Source: Candidatus Thorarchaeota archaeon | GTDB taxonomy: Archaea > Asgardarchaeota > Thorarchaeia > Thorarchaeales > Thorarchaeaceae | Length of the DNA: 64,000 nt | Direction: 5' to 3' | Assembly: GCA_004376265.1 (NCBI GenBank) | Contig: SOKL01000115.1 | Coordinates: 12,699-76,698 of the forward strand | Shown here: positions 8,856-49,500 of the stretch, piece after piece | How the letters are laid out: the number at the start of each line of letters is the position of its first letter | How positions within the stretch are numbered: the first letter of the stretch is position 1 | Notes under the pieces: model-generated | Seen by the model: the letters and a program-made list of their open reading frames with translations, nothing else | Told to the model about the DNA's origin: nothing | Database searches by the model: none | Translations under genes and position numbers: made by a program

Positions 8856-10637
8856 TTATAGGGCTAATTTCTTCAGAGTGTCTTTAGTGGGTTGACCTTT
8901 CGTATCCCAACCTCGGAGAGAATAATATTCCGGAATCATCACATCAAGGTGGACTACACGTTTTCTCGATCCACCTTCAGGTAGTGGTTTGAAGAACCTA
9001 GGCGGAAGTGTGTCATCCTCTGCGGTGAAACCTTCTCGTAGGTTGAATAAACGCTCTAGATTGTAGATACGTTCTCCTATACGAAGTATGTCACGACCAT
9101 CGATTTGAAGTCCCGTTCCAGCTGCAAGCATTTCGGCATAATCATCTACTGTCCAAGCAAAGTTTGTGAACCTGCATACAACCATAGAGTCCATTGCTGC
9201 AGACAGGTCTTGATAGAGCATGACAAGGTCTGCTTTTCCTTTAGGACTGTCGCGGTCAATGAGGACAGGTGATCCTAGTACTTCTGGACCAATTAGGTAA
9301 GACCTAAGGTGACATCCACCCCGATTTGATGTTGCATACCCTAGAGCGTGGCCTTGAGCTCCTCGCGGATCATACGCTGGAATCTCAAGTCCTTTCACTT
9401 GCATCGCGAGTTCTGGTGCACCATAACGCTCAGTAAATCTCTTTGAACCCTCCCCCATCTCTGCACCAAGACCTCGAGCATGTGCAATGTCATCAATGAT
9501 CTCAAGCACTCCCGTTGTATCACCGAATTTCAGGGGAGCATCTAGCTTGCCAATTTGTACTAGTTCCATAGCTGCTCCAATTGTACTTCCTACAGAGATT
9601 GTATCAAGTCCAAGTAGATTACACTGATTATTGGCAATAGCAATAAATTCCAAGTCGTTAATTCCACATTGAGGACCAAGAGACCAAATCGTTTCGTATT
9701 CAGGACCGCCAACCTTCTTTCCTTTGATCAGACTGACACGACCGCAACCAATGGGACAGCCATGGCAGTTGTATGTACCAGCAGAGAATCGTTCGAGTAG
9801 CTTCTCGCCTGAAACTCCCTCTGCATCATTGAATGTACCTTCTTGAAAATTAAAAGTAGGAAGCATTCCAAGCTCATTTGCAACATTGACGAGGACCGGT
9901 GTACCATAGACAGGTAATGACTTGTCCGTCACCCCATTCCTCTTGAGAAGTCTGCGGGCTCTTTCCACTGCTAGTTTTAACCGGTCAGGATCATGAACAC
10001 CCACGTCGCCAGTCCCTCGTGCGACAATCGCCTTCAGGTTCTTTGAACCCATTACAGCTCCAACACCTCCACGACCAGCTGCTCTATGCTTGTCAGTCAT
10101 GATTGCTGCCATGAGTCCTAGATTTTCTCCTCCAGGACCGATACAAGCGACTTGAGCTTTCGGATCTGTATCTTCAATGAGACCGTCAGTTGTTTCAGTA
10201 GTATCTTTTCCCCAGTACTTTGATGCATCTCGAATCTCCACTTGGCTATCATTGATCCAAAGATAAACCTGAGATGGTGACTTTCCATGAAAGACAACTG
10301 CAGCGAGTCCAGCACGTCGTAATTGTGGAGCAAAATAACCTCCAGCGTGAGAATCAAATATTGTACCAGTTTGAGGGGATTTGGTGATAACTACGAATCT
10401 TCCTGCAGTTGGTACACTGGTGGCTGTAGATGGTCCTACAGCAAACACAAGTAAATTATCTGGTGAGAGGGGATCGATACTTGGAGCCAAGCTATCATAT
10501 AGCAGTTTGACACCTAGACCGCGTCCTCCAATGTATTTCTCATAAAGCTCGGTTGGTATAGGTTCCCTATGCACACGCCCATCAGTTAGTGAAACATGAA
10601 GAATTTCAGCATTATCATAGAGTGAAGACTTTGACAA
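8856..10637 (-). CDS. aor: aldehyde:ferredoxin oxidoreductase family (tungstopterin enzyme)
   Basis: N-terminus ..LHVSLTDG..YIGGRGLGVKLLYD, Fe-S ligand motif CHGCPIGCGR, and a length of about 590 aa. TTG start with GGAGGT 8 nt upstream. Confidence 0.92.
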   Translation of the reverse strand: MSKSSLYDNAEILHVSLTDGRVHREPIPTELYEKYIGGRGLGVKLLYDSLAPSIDPLSPDNLLVFAVGPSTATSVPTAGRFVVITKSPQTGTIFDSHAGGYFAPQLRRAGLAAVVFHGKSPSQVYLWINDSQVEIRDASKYWGKDTTETTDGLIEDTDPKAQVACIGPGGENLGLMAAIMTDKHRAAGRGGVGAVMGSKNLKAIVARGTGDVGVHDPDRLKLAVERARRLLKRNGVTDKSLPVYGTPVLVNVANELGMLPTFNFQEGTFNDAEGVSGEKLLERFSAGTYNCHGCPIGCGRVSLIKGKKVGGPEYETIWSLGPQCGINDLEFIAIANNQCNLLGLDTISVGSTIGAAMELVQIGKLDAPLKFGDTTGVLEIIDDIAHARGLGAEMGEGSKRFTERYGAPELAMQVKGLEIPAYDPRGAQGHALGYATSNRGGCHLRSYLIGPEVLGSPVLIDRDSPKGKADLVMLYQDLSAAMDSMVVCRFTNFAWTVDDYAEMLAAGTGLQIDGRDILRIGERIYNLERLFNLREGFTAEDDTLPPRFFKPLPEGGSRKRVVHLDVMIPEYYSLRGWDTKGQPTKDTLKKLAL

Positions 10638-11975: not shown

Positions 11976-14291
11976 GTGTTGACCAAGAAGGAAACCTATG
12001 TAGAAAAGCCGTTGATTCGAAAAGATAGCGTTGAGTATAGGTCATACCAAGTCAACCTTGCAGAGGTTGCTGCAAAAGAGAGCACAATGATTGTCCTTAG
12101 CACGGGTCTCGGAAAGACTGTGATTGCAGCCCTTGTCGCTGCAAAACGCCTTTCTGAGTTCCCTGACTCTAAGGTTCTCTTTCTTGCTCCTTCTAGACCC
12201 TTAGTAGACCAACAGGCAAGGTATCTGAGAAGAGTGTTGGATATTGATGAGAGTCTTGTTGTGTGCCTTACGGGTCAGGACTCCCCAGAACAGAGGAAAA
12301 CTATGTGGGTAGATTCTCGGGTCGTTGTCATGACTCCTCAAGCTCTGCAAAATGATCTCGTTCTAAGAAGCTATGAGCTGCAAGATGTGTCATTGGTAAT
12401 ATTCGACGAAGCTCATCGAGGAGTAGGTAACTATGCATACACCTTCATCGCAGAACTCTACGAGAAACAGGGTAAGAATGTCAGATTACTTGGTCTCACA
12501 GCATCACCTGGTCATCAAGCTGAACACATTAGAAAGGTCTGTGAGAACCTACGGTTATCACATGTTGAGGTCAGGAGCGAGAAGAGCAGAGATGTGCGCG
12601 AATATATGGTCACTGTGGATTCAGAGATTCTGTTCATCAACCTTCCTCCAGAGATTGAGGTTCTAAAAGACATCCTCTACTCAATCATCGATGTCTATAG
12701 GGGACCAATACTCAACAATGGATTCAAACTACCGAATGCTAGGCGAATGACCAGAAAGGAAATCCTGAGGACACAGAGTGCTGTTCGAAAAGAGATCGGG
12801 TCGTATACTAAACCTCCCAGTTCACTCTTTTTAGTGATTCGCAATCTCACGGCTTTGCTCAGAATTGTGCATCTATTGGAGTTTATTGGTACCCAAGGTC
12901 TGATGCCAACCCATAGATACATTCAGGGAGTCCATGAAGAGATTCGTAACAAGAAGAGCTCGAAGGGTGTAAAGGACCTGTTGTCCAGACCTGAGTTCTC
13001 ACAATTCGAAAACCTTCTAGAAGCACTCATTGCAAAAGGCTATCGCCATCCTAAGGCAGATGCTATTCTGGAGATAGTCAGTGACCAACTGTCAGTCGAT
13101 CTGGATTCGCGGATTCTGATCTTCACGCGTTTCCGAGATACAGCAGTGGAGGTCAAAGAGACCCTTGAACAACTTGATTCAGTGAGAGCAAGTCGCTTTG
13201 TCGGTCAGAGCTCACGTGGCTCTGACAAGGGATTCAGTCAGAAGAAGCAAGTAGAGATTCTGGATGGCTTTCGGAATAACGAGTACAATGTTCTAGTAGC
13301 CACACAAGTCGGGGAGGAAGGTTTAGACATCCCTGAATGCAACTTAGTGGTCTTCTATGACTGTGTTCCATCTGTTGTACCCTATATTCAGCGACGAGGA
13401 AGAACTGGTCGTCGATCCCCAGGACGAGTAGTCATATTCGTTGCAAAAGGAACTCACGATGAGTTCTACCATTGGAGTGTGATAAATAAATTGAAGAAAA
13501 TGCCTAAAGCCCTCAAAGAAGCAGAGAGTGAAGAGGATGAAAAACAGACAAGTCTAGATGAATTTGTCACAGAGGATTCAGATATGCCAACTGAACGAAT
13601 GGTGAGTAAGGCACCTAAGAAGGAAGATGAAGAAATCCAATTAATTGTCGACTCCAGAGAGCTACCTACTGCTGTGGCTAGAGAACTCACAAGACTCGAT
13701 GTTAAAATATCTGGGGAGAGTTTGAAAATTGGGGACTACGTTGCTTCAGAGGAGGTTGCCATCGAGCGTAAGGAGAGTAATGACTTCATCCAATCACTGA
13801 TTGATGGCCGACTGTTCTCCCAACTGAGTGCACTTCGGTCAGCATATCGACGTCCAGTTCTCATTATCGAGGGTGAGCAGCTGATTGGTTTAAGGGCAGT
13901 GAATCCAGCTTCAATCTATGGAGCCTTGGCATCAATTGCTATACGAATCCAAGTTCCAATAATCTGGACTCGTAATTCTGAAGAAACAGCTAATGTGCTC
14001 TATAGAATCGCACACATGGAACAAGTTGAATCAAGCAAACCTCTCAGAACTCGTTCAGGAGAAGCGAAAGGATCCGACGCGGAGGCATTGGAATATATCT
14101 TGTCCGGATTCCCTGGAGTTGACACAGTGACCTCTAGAGCAATTCTTTCTGAATTTGAAACCTTAGAAGGAATCTTCTCCGCAGAATTCAAAGACCTGCA
14201 AAAAGTGAAAGGTGTTGGTCCAAAGATTGCAGGGCGAATAAGACGTCTCCTCACAACTAAGTATCCAGGCGCGAAGAGTGATAGTAATTAG
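11976..14291 (+). CDS. hef: Hef helicase/nuclease (archaeal FANCM/XPF homolog)
   Basis: SF2 helicase motifs STGLGKTVIA, FDEAH and QRRGRTGR are followed by an ERCC4 nuclease motif (GDYVASEEVAIERKESNDF). The C-terminus has an HhH (VKGVGPKIAGRI). GTG start. Confidence 0.92.
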   Translation: MLTKKETYVEKPLIRKDSVEYRSYQVNLAEVAAKESTMIVLSTGLGKTVIAALVAAKRLSEFPDSKVLFLAPSRPLVDQQARYLRRVLDIDESLVVCLTGQDSPEQRKTMWVDSRVVVMTPQALQNDLVLRSYELQDVSLVIFDEAHRGVGNYAYTFIAELYEKQGKNVRLLGLTASPGHQAEHIRKVCENLRLSHVEVRSEKSRDVREYMVTVDSEILFINLPPEIEVLKDILYSIIDVYRGPILNNGFKLPNARRMTRKEILRTQSAVRKEIGSYTKPPSSLFLVIRNLTALLRIVHLLEFIGTQGLMPTHRYIQGVHEEIRNKKSSKGVKDLLSRPEFSQFENLLEALIAKGYRHPKADAILEIVSDQLSVDLDSRILIFTRFRDTAVEVKETLEQLDSVRASRFVGQSSRGSDKGFSQKKQVEILDGFRNNEYNVLVATQVGEEGLDIPECNLVVFYDCVPSVVPYIQRRGRTGRRSPGRVVIFVAKGTHDEFYHWSVINKLKKMPKALKEAESEEDEKQTSLDEFVTEDSDMPTERMVSKAPKKEDEEIQLIVDSRELPTAVARELTRLDVKISGESLKIGDYVASEEVAIERKESNDFIQSLIDGRLFSQLSALRSAYRRPVLIIEGEQLIGLRAVNPASIYGALASIAIRIQVPIIWTRNSEETANVLYRIAHMEQVESSKPLRTRSGEAKGSDAEALEYILSGFPGVDTVTSRAILSEFETLEGIFSAEFKDLQKVKGVGPKIAGRIRRLLTTKYPGAKSDSN

Positions 14292-37847: not shown

Positions 37848-38165
37848 ATGAAAGAACTAGGTCTGCGGACTAGAGCCCAGAAAAAGGTTCGACGTGCGCG
37901 ACCAAAAGCCCGTAAGAAGAATTTGAATAACTCTTCTAAAGGGAAGTCCTTACTCTCCAAGAAGGAACTCGCATCAGGTTCTGGAGAGTCTGCAGCTGTT
38001 CACTTTGTCCAAATGGACCTTGTCAGTTCCAGTGATGAAGCTGATGGGAGTGATGATGACCTCGCTGTGGAAAGAACTGTGGAAACTCTCTCTGTGACTG
38101 GAAGTGATGACCCAGCATCAATACAGGAGAAGGAGGCCTGGTCTGTAGGAGGGATCCCATCCTGA
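37848..38165 (+). CDS. doubtful ORF: basic N-terminus, acidic/Ser-rich C-terminus
   Basis: It is the only ORF of at least 100 codons in an 800-nt gap. It is low-complexity and shares the interval with overlapping antisense ORFs of similar length. Confidence 0.25.
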   Translation: MKELGLRTRAQKKVRRARPKARKKNLNNSSKGKSLLSKKELASGSGESAAVHFVQMDLVSSSDEADGSDDDLAVERTVETLSVTGSDDPASIQEKEAWSVGGIPS

Positions 38166-38369
38166 TGATGACAGACAATGCTCTTGCTGATCTTGAAATC
38201 CCTTGGGTTTCGAGAGGTGGTGACACTGGCAAGAGAAGGGCGGAACACAGAAGTTTCTTGCTGTTGTGGTTCATTCACATTAAAATGTAAGAAATAGGTT
38301 ATAGGTTATGATAAAAAGGATGGATAACCAGAATTAATTAGAAACAAATGAGAGAGGTCTGAATCGGAG

Positions 38370-39110
38370 ATGAATTTAGCCAAAAAGATATTCAAGACTG
38401 CCCATGAGGAGGGTAGAACTTTTGTCCTAGAGCATGAAGCGAAGGACATAATGAAGGCATATGGTATCCCAATCCCTGCTTATGCAACAGCAAGTACAGC
38501 TGACGAAGCAGTCACCAAATCAAAAGAGATTGGATTTCCTGTGGTGCTTAAAATTCTCTCTAAGGATATTCTGCACAAATCTGATGCGGGAGGAGTCAAA
38601 ATCAACCTCAAAGATGAGGACTCTGTTCGAAAAGCATTCGATGATATCATGGAGAACGCGACAAATTACGGAAAAGAAAAGGGAATTGAGGTTGACCTCA
38701 GTCGTGGTGTATTCATCTCGGATTTTGTAGACATGGGCACCGAGATTATCGTAGGAGTAACAAAGGACCCGCAATTTGGGCATGCTCTGATGGCAGGATT
38801 GGGAGGGATCTTTGTAGAGGTTCTCAAAGATGTGTCATTTAGGTTGATACCATTCACTGAGGTGGATGCGAGAGAGATGCTAGGTGAACTCAAAGCCTAC
38901 AAGATACTCGAGGGTGTTCGAGGTCAAGAACCTCGTGACGTGGATTCATTAATCAATGTCATGCTAGCAGTATCCAAGATGATTGTGGAGAATCCTGAGA
39001 TAACCGAACTAGACTGTAATCCAACTTTTGTATATGAAAAAGGAAAGGGCTCATTGGTCGTAGACGCTAGGATACTAATTGGTAATTCAGATTCAACTAC
39101 TAGCCACTGA
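38370..39110 (+). CDS. acdB: ADP-forming acetyl-CoA synthetase beta subunit (ATP-grasp)
   Basis: LEHEAKDIMKAYGIPIP...IGFPVVLKILSKDILHKSDAGGVKINL is the typical ACD beta / ATP-grasp_5 pattern. About 245 aa. Confidence 0.85.
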   Translation: MNLAKKIFKTAHEEGRTFVLEHEAKDIMKAYGIPIPAYATASTADEAVTKSKEIGFPVVLKILSKDILHKSDAGGVKINLKDEDSVRKAFDDIMENATNYGKEKGIEVDLSRGVFISDFVDMGTEIIVGVTKDPQFGHALMAGLGGIFVEVLKDVSFRLIPFTEVDAREMLGELKAYKILEGVRGQEPRDVDSLINVMLAVSKMIVENPEITELDCNPTFVYEKGKGSLVVDARILIGNSDSTTSH

Positions 39111-40305
39111 TCAAGTAATGAAGAAGAATAAGTCCTTTCTTGAGATCGAGGTCAGTGAGTGGAGCTTCTGGTGAAACCTTAGCCTTACTCGCAAGTAGAA
39201 GCAATAGAGCCACTAATCTGGGGACAAGGCGAGCATATTGAAGTAAGAAGTCTTTGTTACCAGTGGAGTCTACAACAAGACCTTCTAATCTCCTGATCAG
39301 GAGTTTGATTCTTTCTTCAACACCTTCTCCTAATTTAAGACCCTGGAATATCTGGGCTGCAGCCGATTCATCCTGAAGAAACTCTGAGGAGATACCGATT
39401 TTATCAAACATCTCAAGCGCGCCAATAATCATAGAATCATAATGTTCATCTTCAAGACGTTCGATTCCCTGCTTGACAGCTTGAACCTGCCCTAACAACC
39501 GTATCGAATTGGTCAGAATTGTGCGAGAAGCACCTGATGTTGAGGACGCCATTCCAGCAAGTTGGTCTTTGTGAACATTCTCAAGACGTGCAGCCACTGA
39601 TTCATTGAGTTTCTTGTCAAACCCCGGAGAAACGCCAACATTGGCAGCTTGGGGGAGTATTGTGTGAGACCCGAGTCTACGAATTGTAGTAAGTGTTGTG
39701 AAGTCTTCAACGGGGGTATGGAAGAAAAGAATGCGGATTATATCATATCCAGTTTCAAAGTCAGCTTCAGTGGTCACGTTTCTACCCTGTGCCTTGCACG
39801 AAAATGCACTGAGCAAAGCCCACGACGAGAGCAGATCCTCTCGGAGCTCCCCTTGTAGTGCAGAATTTGCTAGTTCATGTTCCACGAGGAATCGAGATAG
39901 CTTGTCAGCAGCAGTTGTCGCTCTCTGAAGTGTTGCCCCACTCAGTTGTAAATCTGCAATTGATTTGATGAACTCCCTTGGTTCACGAGATGGGGGACGG
40001 AGGACAAAACCAGGGTCCTTCCTTGACATTAACCACCACTTCGAGGAAGATGTGAAGTAATCTAGCACATCAATTGCCACCGTAACATCTGAGAGTGTTG
40101 CAACATCTCGTCCGTCAAGGTATGCCACTAGACGAGTGAATATTCTAACGAACCGGGTAAGATGAACAGAAATCTTCTCACCTACGAATTGGCTGTCAGT
40201 GAATCTTGATACTATAGTTTCAATCTGACCAGGTATGGATTCCTCTAGTTGTGTGAATAACAAACCTCTGTAGACATCTACGGGGCTTCTAGACAAAAAC
40301 CTCAA
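39100..40305 (-). CDS. hypothetical, predominantly alpha-helical protein
   Basis: 401-codon ORF with a TTG start, lying 63 nt downstream of uppS on the same strand. No family was recognised. Confidence 0.6.
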   Translation of the reverse strand: MRFLSRSPVDVYRGLLFTQLEESIPGQIETIVSRFTDSQFVGEKISVHLTRFVRIFTRLVAYLDGRDVATLSDVTVAIDVLDYFTSSSKWWLMSRKDPGFVLRPPSREPREFIKSIADLQLSGATLQRATTAADKLSRFLVEHELANSALQGELREDLLSSWALLSAFSCKAQGRNVTTEADFETGYDIIRILFFHTPVEDFTTLTTIRRLGSHTILPQAANVGVSPGFDKKLNESVAARLENVHKDQLAGMASSTSGASRTILTNSIRLLGQVQAVKQGIERLEDEHYDSMIIGALEMFDKIGISSEFLQDESAAAQIFQGLKLGEGVEERIKLLIRRLEGLVVDSTGNKDFLLQYARLVPRLVALLLLLASKAKVSPEAPLTDLDLKKGLILLHYLISG

Positions 40306-40368
40306 GTCTCCTGTTGTGTCAAAGCTCTGCTTTTGATTTATAAAATACTGGATTACGTGTGAGTGGGA

Positions 40369-41145
40369 CTACTTCCCGTATCTTCTAGACCGTTCACCGT
40401 AGGAGCGTAAGGCACGCCATATGTCAATACGTCTCACAGCAGGCCAGTATATCTGTGCAAAATACAATTCTGAATACGCAGATTGCCATAGAAGAAAGCC
40501 CGAGAGCCGTTCTTCACCGGATGTTCTGATGATGAGATCAGGATCGGGTACGCCATTTGTGTAAAGGTGTCCCTCTATGATAGCTTCATCAATCTGAGAA
40601 GGCGTCATTATACCAGATTCAACCTTCTCACTAATCGCTCTCACTGCGTCAACGAGTTCTGCACGACCTGAGTATCCAATGGCAACATTGAGGACATGGT
40701 CGCTGTAATCGCTGGTTTCCTCTTCTGCAGCCCTGATGGCGAGTTGTACCCTCTCAGGCAGAAGGTCTACTCTTCCAATTGCTCTGATTTTGACTTTATG
40801 ACGATGGACATCAGGATTGCCAACCACTTCTGTAAACTTCTCTTCCGCCAAAGCCATGATCTCTTCTACTTCCTCCTTGTGTCTCTGAAAATTCTCAACG
40901 GAAAAAGCATACAACGTACAGACTTTGACATTGGCTTCCCACAGAATTCGCAGAACCTCCATGACCTTTGCAGCTCCCTTGTGATGTCCGTACCAGGGAA
41001 CATCAAGTCCGTGTTTTCTCGCATAGCGGCGGTTTCCATCTAGAATGATACCCACGTGATTTGGTGCCCAGTCCTTGTCCAGCTGGCGGAACAAGTAGTA
41101 TTCGTATAATCTATACACGGGACCGGACAAGTTCAATTCTAACAC
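40369..41145 (-). CDS. uppS: cis-prenyltransferase (undecaprenyl diphosphate synthase family)
   Basis: HVGIILDGNRRYA, ...IRTSGEERLSGFLLWQSAYSELYF. GTG start. Confidence 0.92.
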   Translation of the reverse strand: MLELNLSGPVYRLYEYYLFRQLDKDWAPNHVGIILDGNRRYARKHGLDVPWYGHHKGAAKVMEVLRILWEANVKVCTLYAFSVENFQRHKEEVEEIMALAEEKFTEVVGNPDVHRHKVKIRAIGRVDLLPERVQLAIRAAEEETSDYSDHVLNVAIGYSGRAELVDAVRAISEKVESGIMTPSQIDEAIIEGHLYTNGVPDPDLIIRTSGEERLSGFLLWQSAYSELYFAQIYWPAVRRIDIWRALRSYGERSRRYGK

Positions 41146-41209
41146 ACTCTGATTTGAAAAAAATTGGAATTATTCTCTTAATAGAGTTGATGCTGCGTAC
41201 GTAGATGTA

Positions 41210-41590
41210 CTAAATCATTTTCGAAATCTTCTCTGCAGCACGTTTCATATCTAAGAATATGAGACCTAGCTTAGCGTTTGCAGTTGTGGAAACTGTCAGA
41301 CAAGCGTTGACTCCAGCTGCTGTGACCAATAACCAACCATCGACACCCTTGACATTAACTTGTTCAAGATTACCTTTCCCAAGCTCTATTGCTGCCCTCT
41401 CACCAAGACTCAACATAGCAGCAGTCATGGCCGCGACCTTTGCCTCGTCTACGTCTGTAGGAAGAGCTGAAACGATTGGTAACCCTTCTACACTGACGAT
41501 GGCACAGGCTTCGATCTCGGGAATACTTCCCTGCAGTTCATTCAGAACGCCTTCGAGTGTATTTTCGCGGGTTTCTCCCATTGGCTTCAC
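41210..41590 (-). CDS. Roadblock/LC7 (MglB-like) protein
   Basis: IPEIEACAIVSVEGLPIVSALP..DEAKVAAMTAAMLSLGERA...GWLLVTAAG.. is the Roadblock pattern. It starts 6-15 nt after the MglA-like gene. Confidence 0.85.
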   Translation of the reverse strand: MKPMGETRENTLEGVLNELQGSIPEIEACAIVSVEGLPIVSALPTDVDEAKVAAMTAAMLSLGERAAIELGKGNLEQVNVKGVDGWLLVTAAGVNACLTVSTTANAKLGLIFLDMKRAAEKISKMI

Positions 41591-41596
41591 CTGTCT

Positions 41597-42169
41597 TTAC
41601 TTATACATCCTTTTCAAAATAACTTCTCTGGCTATTGCTTGGAATGCTCTCTTTACTCCTACGCCTTGCACTGCAATGGTTTCGTAGATAGGTACATTCC
41701 CACCAAGACCAAGGAGATCTAGCATCTCATCACGTGACATCCTATTCGGTAGGTCTCGCTTGTTGAGCATGACCACTATCGGAACATGACGTCCAAGTTC
41801 ATCTCCAAGGAACATCTTCAGCTCCTCAAAGCTCTCTATATTCTCCTCGCGCTGATCTGGTGAAGAGTCAGCAACAAAGAGAATTCCATCAGTACCCTGT
41901 AGCACTACTTTCCTCTGGTGTCTGTGTCGCTTCTGTCCGGCTACTGTGAAGACATCGAATAGGACTCTGCCGCCGGCGGACATAGGAACGTAATCGAAGA
42001 AGAGCGTACGATTTGTTTCATCTTCAATAGCAGTGAACTCACCCTTCTGCAGCCCTTCAACTTTTCCATAGAGCCAGCGAAGAGCAGTTGTCTTACCACC
42101 AAGGGACGGACCATAGAATACCAGTTTGAGATGAATGCGTCCCTTGTCGTCTTTTCGAATTGTAAACAC
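41597..42169 (-). CDS. mglA: MglA-family small Ras-like GTPase
   Basis: KLVFYGPSLGGKTTALRWLY, NRTLFFDYVPMS, FTVAGQ (Thr in place of the Ras-type Asp, as in MglA TVPGQ), GILFVADSS and LNKRDLPN. By recall these align closely with Myxococcus MglA. GTG start. Confidence 0.9.
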   Translation of the reverse strand: MFTIRKDDKGRIHLKLVFYGPSLGGKTTALRWLYGKVEGLQKGEFTAIEDETNRTLFFDYVPMSAGGRVLFDVFTVAGQKRHRHQRKVVLQGTDGILFVADSSPDQREENIESFEELKMFLGDELGRHVPIVVMLNKRDLPNRMSRDEMLDLLGLGGNVPIYETIAVQGVGVKRAFQAIAREVILKRMYK

Positions 42170-42344
42170 CTCTTTGTGTTAGTGCAGAAGTCCCTGAAGT
42201 GTGATGTTGATTGATTAAAAAGTTCAGTCTAATAAAAGGCTTTGTGGCACGGGAGGGTCTTCTCGGAAGGTCCTCTTCATAGATTGGACTCTTCATCTCA
42301 ATATGTTCTGCATAGGAGCTCCAGCACCGGTCACTAGTATATAA

Positions 42345-43013
42345 TCATTCTAATGCCTTTCTAATCTTGGCTACAAGGGCCTGTATTTTAGCTGGGTCTG
42401 GATTGTTCAAGTCTATGTTTCTCCATGGTATTCTAAGAATTTTCATCCCTCTACTCCAGTGATGTTTCTGTTCGTAAATTTCCTCAAGAAGCAGAAGATA
42501 CTCACGCTCCAGCTCTCCCAGATATTCTCTGAAGCTGTCATCTGGCATGGGACTCTCTGCGTCCCTTGCTCTTTTCCTCGCTCGTTGGTAGGCCTCATCT
42601 GGATGTACGTCAAGGTACAACAGCAAAGTGGGTGGCACCAACGACTGGTGCAAGATATTGTAAGCCACTTCGTAGGTGTCCCAGTCTATCTGCTCTATAT
42701 GACCTTGTTGTGTCAATAGCTTGGCGAAGACCCGATCGCCGGGGAGTCCACGGTCTACGATGTATCCCTCGGGACCTCCATCGACATAAGCTGAGTAGGC
42801 AGCCCTTTTCTGCAAGGCAAATCGTTTGTGTAACAACAGTATCTGCATGGGGAAGGCCCACTTGCTCATGTCTGCGTAGAACATCTTAAGGTAGGGATTT
42901 TGATCGACGGGTTCGTTGAGCCCCTCGTAATTCAGTTCTCTGCATAGGATTTTAGTTAGTTCAGTCTTTCCGGCTCCTATGATGCCTTCGACCCATATTA
43001 CTGGTTTAGTCAT
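42345..43013 (-). CDS. deoxynucleoside kinase family protein
   Basis: P-loop EGIIGAGKTELTK, VDRGLPGDRVFA (DRS/ERS-like), and an Arg-rich lid (QRARKRARD). About 220 aa. Confidence 0.8.
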   Translation of the reverse strand: MTKPVIWVEGIIGAGKTELTKILCRELNYEGLNEPVDQNPYLKMFYADMSKWAFPMQILLLHKRFALQKRAAYSAYVDGGPEGYIVDRGLPGDRVFAKLLTQQGHIEQIDWDTYEVAYNILHQSLVPPTLLLYLDVHPDEAYQRARKRARDAESPMPDDSFREYLGELEREYLLLLEEIYEQKHHWSRGMKILRIPWRNIDLNNPDPAKIQALVAKIRKALE

Positions 43014-43210
43014 TAATCTCTCATTAATACTGCAGTCATTTAAATCTCTGATTCTTTCTTAGTGTGAAGAGCTCAGAGTTCGCGCCAATTGGCCATGCCC
43101 CGTTTCTCAATGTTGACGGATAGACAGCAAGGAATTATCGATAGTATTTGTGCTTACATGATAACAAAGTTTGTCAAGCGTGGAGTGGTGCATTTCTGTA
43201 TAGAATGGTG

Positions 43211-43675
43211 CTAGACTCGTTCGAGTTCTGCGAGTGCTGATTTCAAATCCTCTTCGTCAAGTTCGCTTTCTTTTGGTGAGAGTGGTTCTACTGCAAGGAA
43301 TTTGTCAAGCTCATCAGCAAGCTGAGCGCCCTGTTTCTTCATGACAAGTCGTATCATTCCAATGTTGACCGACTCCTCTGATACAACACAAAGAACACCC
43401 TTTCCACACGCAGATGCAAAAATCTTGCCCTCTGAGAACTCGGAAGTGACTATCTCAAGCTCCCCAATCTGCAGGTTCTTGCCCTGTTCTTCGCTTGCAC
43501 AAAAGACTGCCGATGCGATTGCCCCTATACTATCCACATCTACGGGGTAATAGGAGAGCTTCGATACATTGGCGATTGTCAATCCAGTTTTATCCACTAG
43601 GATAACTTTTCGTATCCCCTTTTCTTGACGAATCACTTCTGTAAGGATCTTGTCGAAAACTTTCGCCTCACTCAT
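43211..43675 (-). CDS. Roadblock/LC7 domain protein with acidic C-terminal tail
   Basis: IRKVILVDKTGLTIANVS...DSIGAIASAVFCASEEQG...GVLCVVSEE, followed by the tail SPKESELDEEDLKSALAELERV. Confidence 0.85.
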   Translation of the reverse strand: MSEAKVFDKILTEVIRQEKGIRKVILVDKTGLTIANVSKLSYYPVDVDSIGAIASAVFCASEEQGKNLQIGELEIVTSEFSEGKIFASACGKGVLCVVSEESVNIGMIRLVMKKQGAQLADELDKFLAVEPLSPKESELDEEDLKSALAELERV

Positions 43676-43690
43676 TCAAATACACTCCAT

Positions 43691-44107
43691 TCATTCATTA
43701 TTCTTGAGGACAACCAATATTATGCCCTCACTCACTTCCGGTGCGATATTAATCTGACCCTTCGTTGTGTCAAGAGTCAGAAATGACAGTGATCCCTCCT
43801 GAAGTTCGCGCACAGCATCTAATGCCTTACCAACGAGGGAGGTTATTATTGCAGCGACATTCTCTGTAGTTTCGGCGTCCAGATCACTACTAAGTGGCAG
43901 ACCGTCCATGGTAGTCACGACAACTCCACGGACACCTTCTTGCGACTTAATCCTGGAAAGAATCCCTTGAAGTTTTTCTTGACTAATCAACTTACAGTAT
44001 CCTCGCTGTGTCAACTGTTCATTAACATCTACGCCGCAGTTAACTATTTTAGACTTGTGGAGATATGTTACCACTCCATATGTGTCGTTTGCGCATTCGG
44101 TGAGCAT
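43691..44107 (-). CDS. Roadblock/LC7 domain protein
   Basis: VRGVVVTTMDGLPLSSDL...ENVAAIITSLVGKALDA...GIILVVLK. The start is uncertain: the longest ORF begins at 44155, Met at 44107, or TTG at 44014. Confidence 0.75.
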   Translation of the reverse strand: MLTECANDTYGVVTYLHKSKIVNCGVDVNEQLTQRGYCKLISQEKLQGILSRIKSQEGVRGVVVTTMDGLPLSSDLDAETTENVAAIITSLVGKALDAVRELQEGSLSFLTLDTTKGQINIAPEVSEGIILVVLKNNE

Positions 44108-44178
44108 ATGGTGTTGTGTTACATGAAAAATAGTAGAGGCCGTGGGAAAAAACACGGCCTGTATTGTAATACATAGAA

Positions 44179-45804
44179 CTATACGTCGTCCACGTCGTCA
44201 TCAAAGAGCTTCTTTGAGCTTCTCTTCATTTGAGCAAGGCTACCAGTGAAGGCTCTATCAGCAGCTCCTGAAGGAGCGGCTTCGGGTGCTGCTGCAATCA
44301 TTGCTTCCTGTCGAACAATCTCCTCTTCCTCGTTGTTTAGGACATTGTCAGTCTTGTCTAGCATTGCTTTGACACTTGCAGGTGCACTCTTTGCCCTACT
44401 CTTCAGAGCTTTTCTGAAGGAGGCAATGCGTTTCCGGCCCTTCTCCCTTTCACCGCTGAAGGATTCCTCTCCGGCCTTCTGGGTGACAAAGGTCGCACCC
44501 ACTGTCGGATCGAGGGTTTTCATGATTTCCTCTTCCTTCTTCGACACACGAAGTTTAGTAGTTACTGCACGGACTCTCCGTGCACCTTTCTCGTCAGTAT
44601 AGGTTACTTGAACCTGTATTGGGATTTCGGCTTCCTTGATCTCTTTCTCGGGTTCTACCTCGAAATAGAGTTCATGATCTTCTCCTACGACTCCGATCTT
44701 GCTTTTACTCTTCTTCTTGAGCTGGTCAACAACCGCTCTTGAAACCCCAGAGGCATCTTTGATTATCACTCCAGGAGGTGTGATAAGGCGTACTTCAACA
44801 TCTCTTCCCAGAAGTGTAGCGCCTGCAAGCTCTGAGAGGCTTTTGTCAAGCTCGCTTGGTGTGACATAGTACATCTGGCCGCCTGTGGCCTCGGGCAATA
44901 GGCCCAAGGTCTGAAGTTCCATGCCCCTACCTGACGCGATGCCAACAACATCAACAGCTGTTCCTTCATCAAGGAACATCTTACCAATGTTTCCGTAGTA
45001 TTCGTCCGCAGGAGTGACTTGATAGCCCTCAAGGGCGCCAATTCCTTCATTAGCTAGCCCGTCAGTAAGTAGAACAACTCTACCAACATTACGATGTTTC
45101 GCTATCACGAACGCCATTGCGACTGCGGGACCAAGTGCTGTTCCACCTTTGTCTCGAAGTGCTTGTATGTGTGTCTTCAGCTTGTCCTTATTCTTGCCAA
45201 CACTTACTAACTTCACATCGTCAAGGAGTTTCTTTGTAGAATCCATGATGTCTTGGAGACTTGCAAACGAGTCTCTCGGAAGCTCAACTGGATTTCCATT
45301 CTCAAGATTTCGAGCCACAACGGAACTCTCAAACTCAATTAGACCGAACATCGTGTCTGGCGCATTTGCAGCAAGGCTGTCAATCGATGTGTTCAGACTA
45401 CGTTTTACAGCAGCAAGGTTTGCGCCTGCCATTGATCCCGAAACATCAATGAGTCCAAGGAAAGAACGTCCACCTACGGAAATTGTTTCGGTGTCTGTGC
45501 TTGGGTCTGGGGGAGGTTTGATTACGAAATCGGTGTCATCACCTGCAACAACCACTTCACCCTCTATCACATTCAAAGTTCCACAGAATGGGCATACAAA
45601 GTGCTTACCCACCTTTGAATCCTCTTTGATTTGGTCCACACTAAGAAGGAAACCATTGCACTTGTGGCATGCTATTGGTTTTCCTACGATCTTTGTTGTC
45701 TCATGCGCTAGATGACCAAATTCTACACGCAAAACGAAAGGAATGTCGCTCAGGACTTTCTTTGATGCAGGAAAGGTTTCTGAGCTAGTTCTCAACATAG
45801 GCAT
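44179..45804 (-). CDS. zinc-ribbon / vWA(trunk-like) / beta-sandwich protein with Sec23/24-like architecture
   Basis: CHKC-x21-CPFCGTLN, vWA MIDAS DVSGS, LLTDGLANEG, ..LLPEATGGQMYYV, and IQVQVTYTDEKGARRVRAVTTKLRV. It has a charged C-terminal tail. Confidence 0.8.
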   Translation of the reverse strand: MPMLRTSSETFPASKKVLSDIPFVLRVEFGHLAHETTKIVGKPIACHKCNGFLLSVDQIKEDSKVGKHFVCPFCGTLNVIEGEVVVAGDDTDFVIKPPPDPSTDTETISVGGRSFLGLIDVSGSMAGANLAAVKRSLNTSIDSLAANAPDTMFGLIEFESSVVARNLENGNPVELPRDSFASLQDIMDSTKKLLDDVKLVSVGKNKDKLKTHIQALRDKGGTALGPAVAMAFVIAKHRNVGRVVLLTDGLANEGIGALEGYQVTPADEYYGNIGKMFLDEGTAVDVVGIASGRGMELQTLGLLPEATGGQMYYVTPSELDKSLSELAGATLLGRDVEVRLITPPGVIIKDASGVSRAVVDQLKKKSKSKIGVVGEDHELYFEVEPEKEIKEAEIPIQVQVTYTDEKGARRVRAVTTKLRVSKKEEEIMKTLDPTVGATFVTQKAGEESFSGEREKGRKRIASFRKALKSRAKSAPASVKAMLDKTDNVLNNEEEEIVRQEAMIAAAPEAAPSGAADRAFTGSLAQMKRSSKKLFDDDVDDV

Positions 45805-45980
45805 TAAATATGCGCCTCCAAAATTTATTGGCTGACCTCTGCGTGAACGGTTTTAAGTGAATCGACGAAGAATATGTTCATAGAGTGAAATCTTGTTCCG
45901 AAAAAGAGAGAAACGGACCGACACGTAAGATATTTACACACTTATTGTCAGAACAGGATACTAGTCTAATCATACATTTA

Positions 45981-45986
45981 GGGAGG
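45981..45986 (+). promoter_or_regulatory. Shine-Dalgarno-like GGGAGG upstream of a Roadblock gene
   Basis: GGGAGG lies 11 nt upstream of ATG 45998. Confidence 0.45.
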
Positions 45987-45997
45987 AAAACTCACAC

Positions 45998-46363
45998 ATG
46001 GTGGATCAATCAAAGATAGAACAAATTGTTTCTGATACGATGGCTGCTAATGCAGATTTAGAAGGCATTATAATATGCGATGCCAAAGGAAAGGTGCTTT
46101 TTGGCCACACATTAAGTGCGGGAACAAAGCACTCAGATATTGCAACCCTTGCCGTACAAATTGCCGCTAATTCCTCCCAGCTCTCCGCAGGTCTGGACAA
46201 GGGAGGTCTAAAGGAAGTAAGTATTGCATCAGATAGCGGTTTCATTGTCATCCTTGGTGATGTAAAAATTGTACTTGCTGGAATAGCAGGTGAAAGTGCA
46301 CGTGAGTCATTGGGTCTTCTTAGAATGGCCTTGCGGCGCGCGTTAGTGTCGATAGTTGGTTAA
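45998..46363 (+). CDS. Roadblock/LC7 domain protein
   Basis: LEGIIICDAKGKVLFGH...DIATLAVQIAANSSQLS...GFIVILGD. It is divergent from the Sec23/24-like gene. Confidence 0.85.
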   Translation: MVDQSKIEQIVSDTMAANADLEGIIICDAKGKVLFGHTLSAGTKHSDIATLAVQIAANSSQLSAGLDKGGLKEVSIASDSGFIVILGDVKIVLAGIAGESARESLGLLRMALRRALVSIVG

Positions 46364-46562
46364 GAACGCGCCTATCAAAGTCAACAGAGTTACATTTTTC
46401 AATACATTAAAGGATGCCCTGATGGTCTGAATACGTTACCCAGACATAGCTGGGGTAATACTTGGGTCATACCAACCGTATTTAGGCCTGAGTAAAATCA
46501 GAATAACACACTCGGACTCGCCTTAGCTGATCTGACTGTAATTTGCCGGAAGGGAATGGGAC

Positions 46563-49500
46563 TTGGTTCACATTGAGAAGCTTGTATGCAAGGGCTTCAA
46601 ATCGTTCGGACGAGATTCAGTCAGTATTAAGCTCAATGAGGGATTCACCTGTATTGTAGGTCCCAATGGGTCAGGTAAATCGAATGTTGTTGACGCAATC
46701 CTATTTGTCCTGGGTCAGCTCAGTGCTAAGACTCTAAGGGCCACTGTCTTCTCAGACCTTCTATACTCACCGCCCAAGCCACACATGCCACCTAAGGCAA
46801 AATCTGCGGTTGTAGAGCTTCACTTTAACAACAAGGACCGCGAGTTACAGATTGATGCAGACCGTGTAGTGATTGAGAGGCAGTTAGATGACACTGGAAA
46901 ATCAGTGTGTCGAATCAATGGAAAGGTTGTTACTCGAACTGCAGTTCTTGATGTATTAGGCGCTATTGGAGTGGATCCGAACGGCTACAATCTTGTCCTC
47001 CAGGGTGAGATTGCCCAGATGGTCAAAGTCAATCCAAACGAACGTCGAAAGCTGGTTGAAGAGATTGCAGGTATTTCTGCTTATGATGAACAAAAAGATC
47101 GTGCTATGAAAAAACTCTCTGAAAGCGAAGTGAATCTGGGCAAAGTGGACATGCAGCTGCAGGAACGTCGTCGACAGTTGGAAAAACTTGATGAAGAGAT
47201 GTCTGATGCACGGCGTTACCAAAATCTCAATGACCAGATAAGAAAATACAGAATCGATATTCTTGCTTGGAGTACTATCAAAGGGAAATCGAGAATTGAA
47301 ACCATCAACGAAACACTTGCGCTCAGAGCGGAAGAGGCGGAGAGTCTGGTCAAGGAATTCGTCGAGGTAGAGAATGGCATTACTACAACAGACACTGAGA
47401 TTGAAAAAATAGACCATGATATTGACGAGATCACTGGAGGTGACTCAACCCGAATATCTGAGCAATATGGTGTCGTGTCTGCAGCAGTCAATCATGTGAA
47501 AGGTGACCTTGAAAGGGCACAAGAAGAGTTTGATAGAGCATCAGAAGAACGTAAATCTCTTAGTGAAGAACTTGAAACTACTCAAGATGAGATCAGCCAC
47601 AATGAGCAAGTGATGAAGGAGAAGAACAGCGAACTTACCGACCTAGAGAAAGAGATTGCTGGCACCGCAGCTCAAGTAATTCGGTTAGAAGACCTGTCTG
47701 AGAAGTCACAAGCAGCTTATTATGAAACAACTCTTAGACTTCAGGACCTGAACAACCAAATGCGTCACCTAGACGAAGGGGTTTCAGAGACCAGGTCAAC
47801 GATAAAATCAGATAACAGAGAATTAGGACTTGCGTATGAGGAAGTGCGAGATGCCACTGAGAGCCGTCAGACTACAGATAACGAGATTGCAGAGTTAAAG
47901 GAAAGTATTCCCGAAAAGAAATCTGAGTTCGAACAGTCTGAGGACCTTGAAAAGACAAAGCAGGCTGACATTGACAGCCTAACAAAACAACTCTCCACTG
48001 TGGATGCTGAAGTCACTGAAAGCGCTAAGATTGTCTCTCAGACAAGAGAAGAACTCATCAAAGTGCAAGCCCGGCAAGATGCCCTGAAGGAGGCGGAAGA
48101 TGCGTTTCTAAAGAGGCGCCGTGCGATTGCGATGGTCTTGAAACTAAGAGATTCTGATGTCATCAGTGGGATTCACGGGACTGTGGCTGAGCTTGGGACT
48201 ATTGACCCAGACTATTCAGTGGCACTGGAGATTGCTGGAGGAAACAGACTTTCTCACATTGTTGTTGAAAACGAACAAGTTGCAACTGAATGTGTGCAAG
48301 TATTGAAGACGGAAAAAGTTGGAAGAGCTTCTTTCATTCCTCTTGATAAGATTAAGACACACCCGCCCGGCAAGTTACCTAAGGATGACGGGGTTATTGA
48401 TTTTGCTCTGAATCTGGTCAAATTTGAACCAAAGATGCGTCCGGCCTTTGAATTCGTGTTCTCGAACACCATTATCACCGAGGATTTTGATACCGCAAAA
48501 CGTCAGGGATTCAGCGGACAGAGAGCAGTTTCTCTTGATGGAGACCTGGTTGAGCGTTCGGGATTAATGACAGGAGGTTATTTCCAAAAGGCTGCTGTGG
48601 GACTATCTCTTCAGGTTAAAGATACTAGCCCTCAGATTAGTGAGCGCCTTCAGGGGCTTGAGGATATACTTACTGACCTACGGGATAAACAGACTTCACT
48701 TCGTAAAGAAAAGAGCGCTAATGAAAAGGAAGTCCAAGAACTCGAAAAGACAAACTATCGTTTCCAAATGGAACTGAATAGACTTGAAGAACGTTTAGAA
48801 GAACAAGAATCAAAATCGGAACTATTGAGAGAGAGAATAGACAAGGCTAACCTTACGATTAATGAATTAGAAGCTCAAGTCAAGGAACTTCAAGAGCGAG
48901 ATGATGAACTCAGTGTTCAACGTGAAAGAGTACGAGCTCAGAGAGATGATGCCAATCAAGCCTTAGTCTCTACCGATGCCAACAAACTCAATCAAGAGAT
49001 TAAAGACCTGAAAGAAGTTCAAGAACAATATCAAAAGCAAAGAGAGAAACTACAGAGCGAGATTAGCTCTCTACGTGTGGCTCTAGATGAAAGACTTGGA
49101 CCAAAGGCAATTGATTCGGAAGCCAAGATTCATTCCCAAGATTCAATAATCCCAGGTCTTGAAGAAGAACAAAAACGACTACAGATGGGACTCTCAGAGA
49201 GAGAGGCTGAGTTTGAGAAACTCAAAGAAGAGAGAGAGCAAATTGATGATGCGGTGAAGGACAAACGTGTCCGTCAATTAGAATTGAAGGAGGAACTTCG
49301 AAACTTTAGGTTGAGACATGAGGAGATTCGAGAGGCACAGACCTCTAATGAGAAAGCAGTGTACCGTCTTCAGACGGAACAGAACCGGCTTGAAACTGAA
49401 ATTGTTGCATTTGTAGCTGAGTTGAATACCGTAGCAAACACTCAGGAAGCTCTTGAGGAGAAGGAAGATCAGCGCGAGCTCACCTACAAGGAAATCGAGG

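Follow-up and report, generated by a model that had tools for sequence, protein, structure and literature searches.

Introduction

Small GTPases of the MglA family carry an arginine finger of their own and have a Roadblock protein as GTPase-activating protein (GAP). In Myxococcus, MglA is controlled by MglB and MglC, and Rag GTPases are controlled by Ragulator. The catalytic arginine that Sec23 of coat protein complex II (COPII) holds for Sar1 resides in a gelsolin-like domain. Asgard genomes encode dozens of small GTPases and of Roadblock or longin proteins. The locus described here lies in a 64-kb window, which is the whole stretch of DNA analysed (positions 12,699 to 76,698 of contig SOKL01000115.1, assembly GCA_004376265.1), of a Candidatus Thorarchaeota archaeon. 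It holds genes for an MglA-family GTPase, four Roadblock/LC7 paralogues (RoblA to RoblD) and a Sec23/24-like protein (Sec23L). A conserved module of MglA with several Roadblock proteins (RoblA, RoblB and RoblC) is well supported. The cluster as a whole is probably an inherited syntenic block of several transcription units, in which Sec23L and RoblD are neighbours of this module.

MglA is typically coupled to MglB, at times to two of them, and archaeal MglA-type GTPases are among the closest prokaryotic relatives of Arf, Sar and SRbeta (PMC4316618). MglC of the Myxococcus polarity module is a Roadblock paralogue (PMC9481161). Three families of Roadblock/longin proteins and two of small GTPases belong to the core genes of Asgard archaea (10.1101/2020.10.19.343400). 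Small-GTPase and Roadblock/longin genes rarely form operons in Asgard archaea, so that pairs can seldom be read from a genome, and in the cultured Lokiarchaeon MK-D1 the GTPase genes generally lie outside operons with Roadblock genes (PMC10933270). Since such operons are rare, the present cluster is useful. On the side of the coat, ArnA/ArnB of Sulfolobus has been described as an archaeal counterpart of the Sec23/24 core (PMC12852372). Asgard Sec23-like proteins are all reported to be devoid of the gelsolin domain, and no nucleotide-dependent binding to an Asgard Arf was found for them in yeast (PMC11914678). The parts of the present block are known eukaryotic signature proteins. In a preliminary description of the DNA, their linked arrangement was not known to have been described functionally, and no account of it was found in the literature searched.

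The MglA GTPase and its Roadblock partners

All coordinates are positions in the window. Block proteins were assigned to families with Pfam and NCBIfam models at curated cut-offs and by sequence comparison with the PDB. On the minus strand, in falling coordinate, the genes are Sec23L, RoblC, RoblB, deoxynucleoside kinase (dNK), MglA, RoblA, UppS and U401. On the plus strand, RoblD diverges from Sec23L and is followed by SMC.

The GTPase belongs to the MglA family. It matched the MglA structures of M. xanthus with 136 bits (E 8e-39) and of T. thermophilus with 133 bits, and Arf, Sar or Rab with at most 53 bits (best Arf4, 52.7). It consists of a single 190-residue G domain of MglA type and has no Rag-type C-terminal Roadblock domain. 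The P-loop reads GPSLGGKTT. In the G3 motif, TVAGQ, threonine replaces the conserved aspartate and the catalytic glutamine is kept; FTVAGQ aligns with YTVPGQ. This replacement of the G3/PM3 aspartate is given as a feature of the MglA family in a passage of PMC3000849. The intrinsic switch-I arginine, whose role has been described (PMC4316618), is found in NRTLFFDY, and DETNRTLFFDY aligns with TETDRTLFFDF of characterised MglA. The gene is coupled to RoblA, 6 nt downstream, with RoblB and RoblC at most three genes away. The gap between MglA and RoblA is -4 to 19 nt in 33 of 35 loci. Bit scores, hallmark motifs and the narrow gap agree with the first assignment as an MglA-type GTPase with an adjoining Roadblock gene. 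MglA and RoblA would thus make up a classic prokaryotic GTPase/Roadblock switch pair that is co-transcribed.

RoblA scored 63.6 bits with Pfam Robl_LC7 (cut-off 23) and matched the PDB entries 7f8m (90 bits) and 9jue (66 bits) as well as CvnB5 (38 bits). RoblB matched Robl_LC7 with 39.5 bits, MAPKK1_Int with 31.9 bits and the NCBIfam MglB model with 27 bits. Its PDB matches were LAMTOR2 and MglB, and its C-terminal extension is a conserved acidic helix. RoblC reached 58.2 bits with Robl_LC7 (cut-off 23) and about 52 bits with dynein light chain roadblock. It aligned over its full length with the crystallised protein of PDB entry 7f8f (94 amino acids), with 94.6 bits and 53% identity. RoblD stayed below the Pfam thresholds (Robl_LC7 19.7 bits, cut-off 23; LAMTOR5 23 bits) and was recognised by its match to PDB entry 9jq8, a 'Roadblock/LC7 domain protein' (E 3e-8). 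LAMTOR5 matches were obtained for both RoblC and RoblD. Of the four Roadblock paralogues first reported, three therefore pass the Pfam cut-off and the fourth is carried by its match to the PDB entry.

The four paralogues differ in subtype and are pairwise 18-26% identical, which is too low for recent tandem copies. Models trained on the block proteins found no further Roadblock or MglA genes in the 64-kb window. By a rough estimate of our own, in which about 1% of genes are taken to encode Roadblock proteins, four of them within about 5 kb would occur by chance with P < 0.01. Their ancient divergence and the lack of others in the window indicate that the Roadblock genes are clustered non-randomly around one GTPase, as had been proposed.

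A metagenome scan seeded with RoblC and 7f8f led to two distant, AT-rich contigs (34-36% GC; loci are numbered with the prefix L). On L128 (196-1806), RoblC, RoblB and MglA are contiguous and 57%, 66% and 49% identical to their counterparts in the window. On L129 (177-1394), the contiguous genes are RoblC, RoblB and RoblA, and the last two each share 63% identity with their counterparts in the window. As the neighbourhood is kept under differing gene orders, a functional tie of RoblC-RoblB with MglA/RoblA is indicated. RBLC7 genes at a greater distance (47-49% identical, L130-L135) are solitary, with metabolic genes around them. RoblC of L129 is 96.8% identical to the crystallised 7f8f protein, so that the 7f8f gene itself appears to sit in a Roadblock operon. 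Such an operon is not mentioned in the searched text of the structural paper.

RoblC and RoblB probably form a second bicistronic unit with its own promoter, which joins a truncated Roadblock of RBLC7 type to a full-length one resembling LAMTOR2 and MglB. Joined by RoblA, this pair would most likely make up a platform of several Roadblock proteins by which the nucleotide state of MglA, or its location, is set, in the manner of MglA/MglB/MglC. The block thereby singles out a slowly evolving GTPase of MglA type, with RoblA, RoblB and RoblC as its particular Roadblock partners. RoblC is close to a crystallised RBLC7 protein, and all four proteins are open to joint expression and testing. What Roadblock platforms did before Ragulator and dynein becomes an experimentally tractable question.

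Transcription units

The spacings given in the preliminary description were right for MglA to RoblA (6 nt), RoblC to RoblB (15 nt) and the divergent RoblD/Sec23L spacer (193 nt). It had also placed Sec23L in one operon with the two following Roadblock genes, at a distance of at most 24 nt, and here the start of RoblC was misjudged. The open reading frame (ORF) at 43691-44155 shows no protein conservation over its first 55 codons. In an alignment of 43 homologues, the conservation of RoblC begins at (M/L/V)ISQEKLQ. The start codon is TTG or GTG in 41 of 41 loci, and independent gene calls are 99-100 amino acids long. Because the homologues begin at this motif, the start of RoblC is the TTG at 43990, which gives a protein of 99 amino acids and, consequently, a gap of 188 nt to Sec23L. 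In 41 related loci this spacer measures 151-654 nt.

The spacer contains a terminator-like hairpin 18 nt past the Sec23L stop codon, with a stem of 8 bp, 6 of them G-C, and a T-rich tail. Folding gave a centroid energy of -14.4 kcal/mol, a minimum free energy of -15.3 and a z of -3.7. No other terminator-like site between 39000 and 46700 is intergenic and also placed on the strand that encodes the neighbouring gene. An automatic criterion recognised a hairpin with a T-run at the equivalent site in no fewer than 20 of 41 loci, and inspection by eye added others. In the alignment of 37 spacers the stem sequences differ among lineages and the pairing is kept. An Rfam scan of 38000-47000 returned just one sub-threshold noise match, which overlapped the hairpin.

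About 55 nt before the RoblC start lies an element resembling a transcription factor B recognition element (BRE) and TATA box, CACAAGTCTAAAATA, which is nearly invariant in 37 aligned spacers. Between this element and the TTG/GTG start, a Shine-Dalgarno-like block, GCGRGGAT, is conserved. About 40 nt upstream of the BRE/TATA-like element stands the box ATGCGCAA, a conserved block also written AATGCGCAAA. It occurs as a single copy in the window, and its only cluster in 42 loci is about 100 nt past the Sec23L stop. The block AATGCGCAAA is kept in place in about 36 of the 42 thorarchaeal loci, with no other consistent site within 10 kb, and may be a binding site for a regulator. A regulatory motif shared by the units was considered and rejected, as the ATGCGCAA box has one copy in the window and one conserved position in 42 loci. 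The 'CACAA + TATA' likeness of both promoters was also dismissed; it is not distinctive in the window and gave no regulon evidence. The BRE/TATA-like element ahead of MglA, CACAAAGCCTTTTAT, takes the conserved form CCACAAAGGCTTTTAT in 18 of 20 aligned loci, regardless of what adjoins upstream.

The distances between genes follow the same divisions. RoblC and RoblB are separated by -4 to 26 nt (38 loci) and RoblA and UppS by 6-83 nt in most loci, usually 35-83 nt; the gap between RoblB and MglA ranges from 111 to 3925 nt (about 40 loci). This junction is an insertion hot spot, at which 14 of the 38 loci with both flanking genes present carry unrelated inserts of up to 3.9 kb. The inserts comprise P-type ATPase, CLC channel, NosD-like, TetR with methyltransferase, arrestin-domain protein, dNK and unknown genes. 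dNK occupies the junction in the window alone among 82 sources (the window and L001-L081); it is a lineage-specific insertion and lies outside the module. At L035 (12823-13812, minus strand) the slot holds the arrestin-domain protein (Arrestin_N 73 bits, weak Vps26), a further eukaryotic signature protein of the trafficking type.

The hairpin, the separate promoters and the inserts between RoblB and MglA point to separate transcription units. Judged from the sequence, these are RoblD and, divergent from it, Sec23L, followed by RoblC-RoblB and by MglA-RoblA, perhaps with UppS and U401, and the predicted arrangement is not one operon. UppS is possibly co-transcribed with MglA-RoblA and is not known to be related to them in function. 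The proposed operon of Sec23L with the two Roadblock genes is contradicted by the 188-nt gap, its structure-conserved hairpin with T-run and the separate BRE/TATA-like promoter; Sec23L would be monocistronic.

Conservation and evolutionary rates in Thorarchaeota

The order of RoblD and divergent Sec23L, RoblC-RoblB and MglA-RoblA-UppS-U401 is repeated in about 85 thorarchaeal loci. These comprise about 40 genome loci, a contig obtained through the most divergent U401 homologue and 42 metagenome loci. Flanks of up to 10 kb were read around each homologue, and gene order was scored wherever the contig extends far enough. Sec23L is 56-97% identical among the genome loci, and RoblD has constant position and orientation in all thorarchaeal loci with sufficient flank. 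The flanks, SMC-ScpA-ScpB at one end and UppS and U401 with two acetyl-CoA synthetase subunits at the other, are equally conserved. Since these housekeeping genes are kept just as well, the conservation does not exceed background synteny, i.e. it is inherited. Conservation throughout Thorarchaeota thus loses its value as a sign of function. Conservation of the neighbourhood, proposed earlier as a check on the linkage, was found across Thorarchaeota and did not extend to other Asgard Sec23L loci, where none of 37 has a Roadblock or MglA gene within 5-10 kb.

Mean p-distances were 0.03 for MglA, 0.08 for RoblB, 0.12 for RoblA, 0.16 for RoblC and 0.21 for UppS. They amounted to 0.30 for Sec23L, 0.32 for RoblD, 0.32 for SMC and 0.50 for U401. 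MglA is the slowest-evolving gene of the block, and the rates of MglA, RoblB, RoblA and RoblC are 2-10 times lower than those of Sec23L, RoblD and SMC, which fits a deeper conservation of the MglA/Roadblock part. Rate covariation was calculated for 25 loci and corrected with SMC, UppS and ATP-grasp. Sec23L follows SMC most closely (0.64). Residual divergence of MglA and RoblB is correlated (r 0.54, Mantel p 0.001), an exploratory result noted as a lead. The positive control, MglA-RoblA, failed, and rate covariation was judged uninformative as a test of Sec23L coupling.

The Sec23/24-like protein

Sec23L scored 43 bits with Sec23_trunk (PF04811, cut-off 27) and just under the cut-offs with Sec23_BS (31.9, cut-off 33.5) and zf-Sec23_Sec24 (17.3, cut-off 25). 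Its best homologues are thorarchaeal. It is 88% identical to a protein of Thorarchaeota SMTZ1-45 that NCBI names 'SEC24 family transport protein'. The AlphaFold2 (AF2) model, built with 36 diverse homologues, has a predicted local distance difference test score (pLDDT) of 87.9 and a predicted template modelling (TM) score of 0.88. It comprises, in this order, N-terminal strands, a zinc finger, a von Willebrand factor A (vWA) trunk (114-314), a beta-sandwich (331-421) and a helical domain (424-535). In a Foldseek search of the PDB, the top 46 matches were all Sec23 or Sec24 (E to 1.4e-30, query-normalised TM score (TMq) 0.66-0.75), in agreement with the Sec23/24-like fold first proposed. The next matches were a bacterial vWA protein and Sulfolobus ArnB with TMq <0.5. 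A gelsolin-like domain is absent, as the chain stops with residue 541, past the helical domain; the target-normalised TM score is 0.49-0.59. Sec23L is thus predicted by the model to fold like Sec23/Sec24 minus the gelsolin domain. A role as an ArnB-type regulator was rejected, because the fold match is much weaker (TMq 0.46 vs 0.73) and the partner genes are absent.

The zinc-finger cysteines C46, C49, C71 and C74 are invariant in the 36 diverse homologues. So is a complete MIDAS (metal-ion-dependent adhesion site), formed by D120-x-S122-x-S124, T222 and D248. In an alignment, the MIDAS of human Sec24A is degenerate, with the aspartate and the second serine lost. The C-terminal tail of the family, R-x-S-x3-LF, is conserved across all lineages sampled. 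As the MIDAS is complete throughout the family, we infer that Sec23L most likely engages its ligand by metal-dependent contact with an acidic partner residue; its product would probably bind a partner through this metal site. The earlier argument from the GAP role of Sec23 is weak here, since Sec23L lacks the gelsolin domain with the catalytic arginine and MglA has its own arginine finger and a Roadblock GAP.

Outside the conserved thorarchaeal loci, 37 Sec23L loci were collected, with 24-45% identity and about 14 gene contexts. They came from Hermod-, Jord-, Frey-, Hod-, Borr-, Odin- and Lokiarchaeal assemblies and one divergent metagenome-assembled genome labelled 'Thor'. Relaxed hidden Markov models trained on Thorarchaeota found no Roadblock gene within 5 kb of Sec23L in any of them (about 340 ORFs), and Pfam found none among 102 representative small ORFs beside Sec23L. 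A stricter first pass over the full 10-kb flanks had revealed neither Roadblock nor MglA. The surrounding genes are housekeeping genes.

A small GTPase gene lies at most three genes from Sec23L in 3 of about 14 contexts, Thorarchaeota included. At a GTPase gene density of 1-2%, our estimate of chance for this proximity is P ~0.07, which is no more than suggestive. In a Hod-like clade (L057, L059, L061, L063, L066, L068, L071, L079), a Rab/Ras-like GTPase (Ras 153 bits) is encoded 1.3-1.8 kb upstream of Sec23L, on the same strand and three genes away; with the genes that follow it, it occupies about 0.4-1.8 kb upstream of Sec23L, inside a larger syntenic block. It was rejected as a partner because an AhpC/redoxin gene and, at some loci, a beta-flower gene lie between, within general synteny. 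The third GTPase, of 223 amino acids (L067:9135-9806, plus strand), ends about 125 nt upstream of a Sec23L homologue that starts near 9932. Its G3 motif is GTPGL, without the usual aspartate or the catalytic glutamine. With 56-73% identity between assemblies that bear the labels Loki-, Thor-, Hod-, Heimdall-, Odin- and Hermodarchaeota, it is a pan-Asgard core GTPase. This candidate, too, was rejected as a partner of Sec23L, as its orthologues in two other genomes lie away from Sec23L.

Alternative readings of the cluster

The probable reading of an inherited block, with an MglA/multi-Roadblock module next to Sec23L and RoblD, has several points against it. Transcription may read through the hairpin past Sec23L. 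The contigs L128 and L129 measure 1.5-1.9 kb and do not reach far enough to reveal genes upstream of RoblC. The rate covariation expected between MglA and RoblA, the positive control, was absent (r = -0.11). Finally, all the thorarchaeal genomes examined have Sec23L inside the Roadblock cluster, flanked by RoblD and RoblC, which could reflect function. On this inherited-block reading, Sec23L and divergent RoblD would be lineage-specific thorarchaeal neighbours of the module.

The preliminary description had taken the block for one functional system, a proto-coat or polarity system in which Roadblock-tuned MglA-GTP recruits, or is regulated by, Sec23L in a COPII-like manner. This is plausible for the GTPase with its Roadblock proteins and unproven for Sec23L, and as a whole it appears unlikely. 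The arrangement indeed does not vary among about 85 thorarchaeal loci, in which the identity of Sec23L falls as low as 56%, with Roadblock genes on both sides of a gene whose product has the Sec23/24 fold. The relationship of archaeal MglA-type GTPases to Arf, Sar and SRbeta (PMC4316618) and the proximity of GTPase genes in 3 of about 14 contexts (P ~0.07) also speak for it. However, the units have separate promoters and a terminator-like element between them, they are separated by an insertion hot spot, and housekeeping neighbours are equally conserved. Neither Roadblock nor MglA occurs near Sec23L in Hermod-, Jord-, Frey-, Hod-, Borr- or Lokiarchaeal loci. GTPases near Sec23L elsewhere are of other families, and the sole directly adjacent case is not conserved in orthologous contexts. 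Evolutionary rates within the block are tenfold apart. Sec23L lacks the gelsolin domain, and nucleotide-dependent binding between Asgard Sec23-like proteins and an Asgard Arf was not found (PMC11914678). Sec23L as an effector of the MglA/Roadblock module is therefore weakly supported.

A more specific form of this idea is rather improbable. In it, a Ragulator-like stack of Roadblock proteins would control MglA, which would recruit or release the gelsolin-less, MIDAS-bearing Sec23L at a membrane. If true, the locus would encode a living relative of a pre-budding Sar1-Sec23/24 complex, with the GAP function still residing in the Roadblock proteins instead of a coat subunit. The position of Sec23L beside a candidate switch poses a falsifiable binding question on the origin of the COPII inner coat, for which a positive outcome is less likely on present evidence.

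It is doubtful, and distinctly so, that Sec23L forms a Roadblock-scaffolded adaptor with RoblD, and perhaps RoblC-RoblB, independently of MglA. The contact might be, for instance, that of an RBLC7-type dimer with a Sec23L helix, or of an acidic Roadblock tail placed in the MIDAS. RBLC7 dimers are known to bind partner helices (PMC10933270), RoblB has the conserved acidic C-terminal helix, and the MIDAS of Sec23L is intact. RoblD and Sec23L evolve at similar rates (0.32 and 0.30), and the common spacer of the divergent pair measures about 100-200 nt in the majority of thorarchaeal loci (0.9-1.6 kb in L011, L025, L026 and L035). Set against this, Sec23L orthologues with the same MIDAS and C-terminal motif occur in many lineages without an adjoining Roadblock gene, and on L128 and L129 RoblC-RoblB goes with MglA or RoblA, not visibly with Sec23L. 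On a last reading, function is confined to the two closely spaced pairs, MglA-RoblA and RoblC-RoblB, which would have nothing to do with one another or with Sec23L and would share a cluster by an accident of ancestry. This would agree with background synteny, which explains all conservation within Thorarchaeota, with the separate promoters and with the solitary distant RBLC7 genes (L130-L135), but is very improbable in view of the association of RoblC-RoblB with MglA or RoblA in different gene orders on L128 and L129, of four ancient Roadblock paralogues around one GTPase, which chance is unlikely to produce, and of the exploratory MglA-RoblB correlation (r 0.54, Mantel p 0.001).

Gene content of the block

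The ORF listing reproduced the nine genes first described with their coordinates and strands (Table 1). The ORFs and families also agree with the earlier finding of dNK, uppS and a 401-residue protein interleaved on the shared strand.

Table 1. Genes and putative sequence elements of the block in the 64-kb window
Feature	Position	Strand	Basis
RoblD, fourth Roadblock paralogue, 121 aa	45998..46363	+	Pfam below cut-off, PDB 9jq8
Sec23L, Sec23/24-like protein, 541 aa	44179..45804	-	Pfam, AF2, Foldseek
Terminator-like hairpin with T-rich tail	44137..44160	-	Folding and alignment
Conserved box ATGCGCAA, candidate regulator site	44089..44096	-	Intergenic alignment
BRE/TATA-like element CACAAGTCTAAAATA ahead of RoblC	44045..44059	-	Intergenic alignment
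RoblC, truncated Roadblock (RBLC7 / dynein-LC7 / LAMTOR5-like), 99 aa, TTG start	43691..43990	-	Pfam, PDB, alignment
RoblB, full-length Roadblock (LAMTOR2/MP1/MglB-like), 154 aa	43211..43675	-	Pfam, NCBIfam, PDB
Deoxynucleoside kinase (dNK)	42345..43013	-	Pfam dNK 130 bits
BRE/TATA-like element CACAAAGCCTTTTAT ahead of MglA	42232..42246	-	Alignment of loci
MglA-family small GTPase, 190 aa	41597..42169	-	PDB MglA matches
RoblA, Roadblock partner (CvnB/Thor-RB-like), 126 aa	41210..41590	-	Pfam, PDB
UppS (cis-prenyltransferase), 64 nt past RoblA	40369..41145	-	TIGR00055 261 bits
U401, all-alpha protein without family, 401 aa	39100..40305	-	AF2, homologue search

The U401 gene, always found after UppS, shares 11 nt with a convergent ATP-grasp gene and evolves faster than any other in the block. 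Neither Pfam nor NCBIfam assigned a family to its product, which is restricted to Thorarchaeota. Its 184 homologues are unannotated, and every listed source name is Thorarchaeota or Promethearchaeota. The AF2 model is all-alpha (pLDDT 87.5), and there was no PDB fold match (best E 0.09). This agrees with the first characterisation as a helical protein without recognised family. UppS, U401 and dNK are regarded as passenger genes. In one thorarchaeal contig, a TnpB/Cas12f-like gene (OrfB_IS605, Cas12f1-like_TNB; L082:15614-17764, minus strand) lies about 4 kb past the block.

Comparison with known systems

Sec23L resembles the Sar1-Sec23/Sec24 system of COPII in its arrangement of zinc finger, trunk, beta-sandwich and helical domain, with TMq values of 0.70-0.75, and the small GTPase gene is about 2 kb away. 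In contrast to COPII, Sec23L is without the gelsolin domain and hence without the Sec23-type arginine finger, and its MIDAS is intact where that of human Sec24A is degenerate. The locus has a single Sec23L gene instead of a Sec23/Sec24 pair, and no Sec13/31 or Sec12. Its GTPase is of MglA type with no evident N-terminal amphipathic helix.

ArnA/ArnB of Sulfolobus (PDB 8s05; PMC12852372) likewise has an archaeal protein made of a vWA domain with MIDAS, a beta-sandwich and a helical domain, which is associated with a zinc finger. In that system the zinc finger is provided in trans by ArnA, which bears a forkhead-associated (FHA) domain, and control is by phosphorylation, whereas the zinc finger of Sec23L is in cis. 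The block contains no FHA or kinase genes, and the fold match of Sec23L has a TMq of 0.46, compared with 0.73 for Sec23/24.

The actinobacterial conservon CvnA-D shares with the block an MglA-family GTPase (CvnD) and a Roadblock protein (CvnB), and RoblA matches CvnB5 (38 bits). The block differs in lacking the CvnA histidine kinase and CvnC (DUF742) and in having several Roadblock proteins instead of one. The Asgard operon of a LAMTOR1-like Roadblock, a Rab-like GTPase and DENN (10.1101/2020.10.19.343400) is also a rare conserved neighbourhood of Roadblock-superfamily and small-GTPase genes. Its GTPase is Rab-like and not MglA, and its Roadblock subtypes are others; the present block has no DENN gene.

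The MglA/MglB(/MglC) systems of M. xanthus and T. thermophilus share with the locus the family hallmarks of the GTPase and the adjoining Roadblock gene. Extra Roadblock paralogues nearby recall MglC, and the C-terminal helix of RoblB is as in MglB. The locus is distinguished by its gene order, with MglA ahead of the Roadblock gene, and by three to four Roadblock proteins, among them the truncated RBLC7 type. RomR/RomX or Frz partners were not seen, and the host is an Asgard archaeon.

Compared with the Ragulator-Rag system, the GTPase of the window is a single-domain MglA type without the C-terminal Roadblock domain of Rag, and Pfam recognised no LAMTOR1-like wrapping subunit in the block. The likeness lies in the combination of Roadblock proteins around a small GTPase, which are full length (RoblB, with MAPKK1_Int and LAMTOR2 matches) or truncated (RoblC and RoblD, with LAMTOR5 matches). 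With RoblA and RoblB of full length and the 99-residue RoblC of RBLC7 type, the mixture of full-length and truncated Roadblock proteins is present at this locus.

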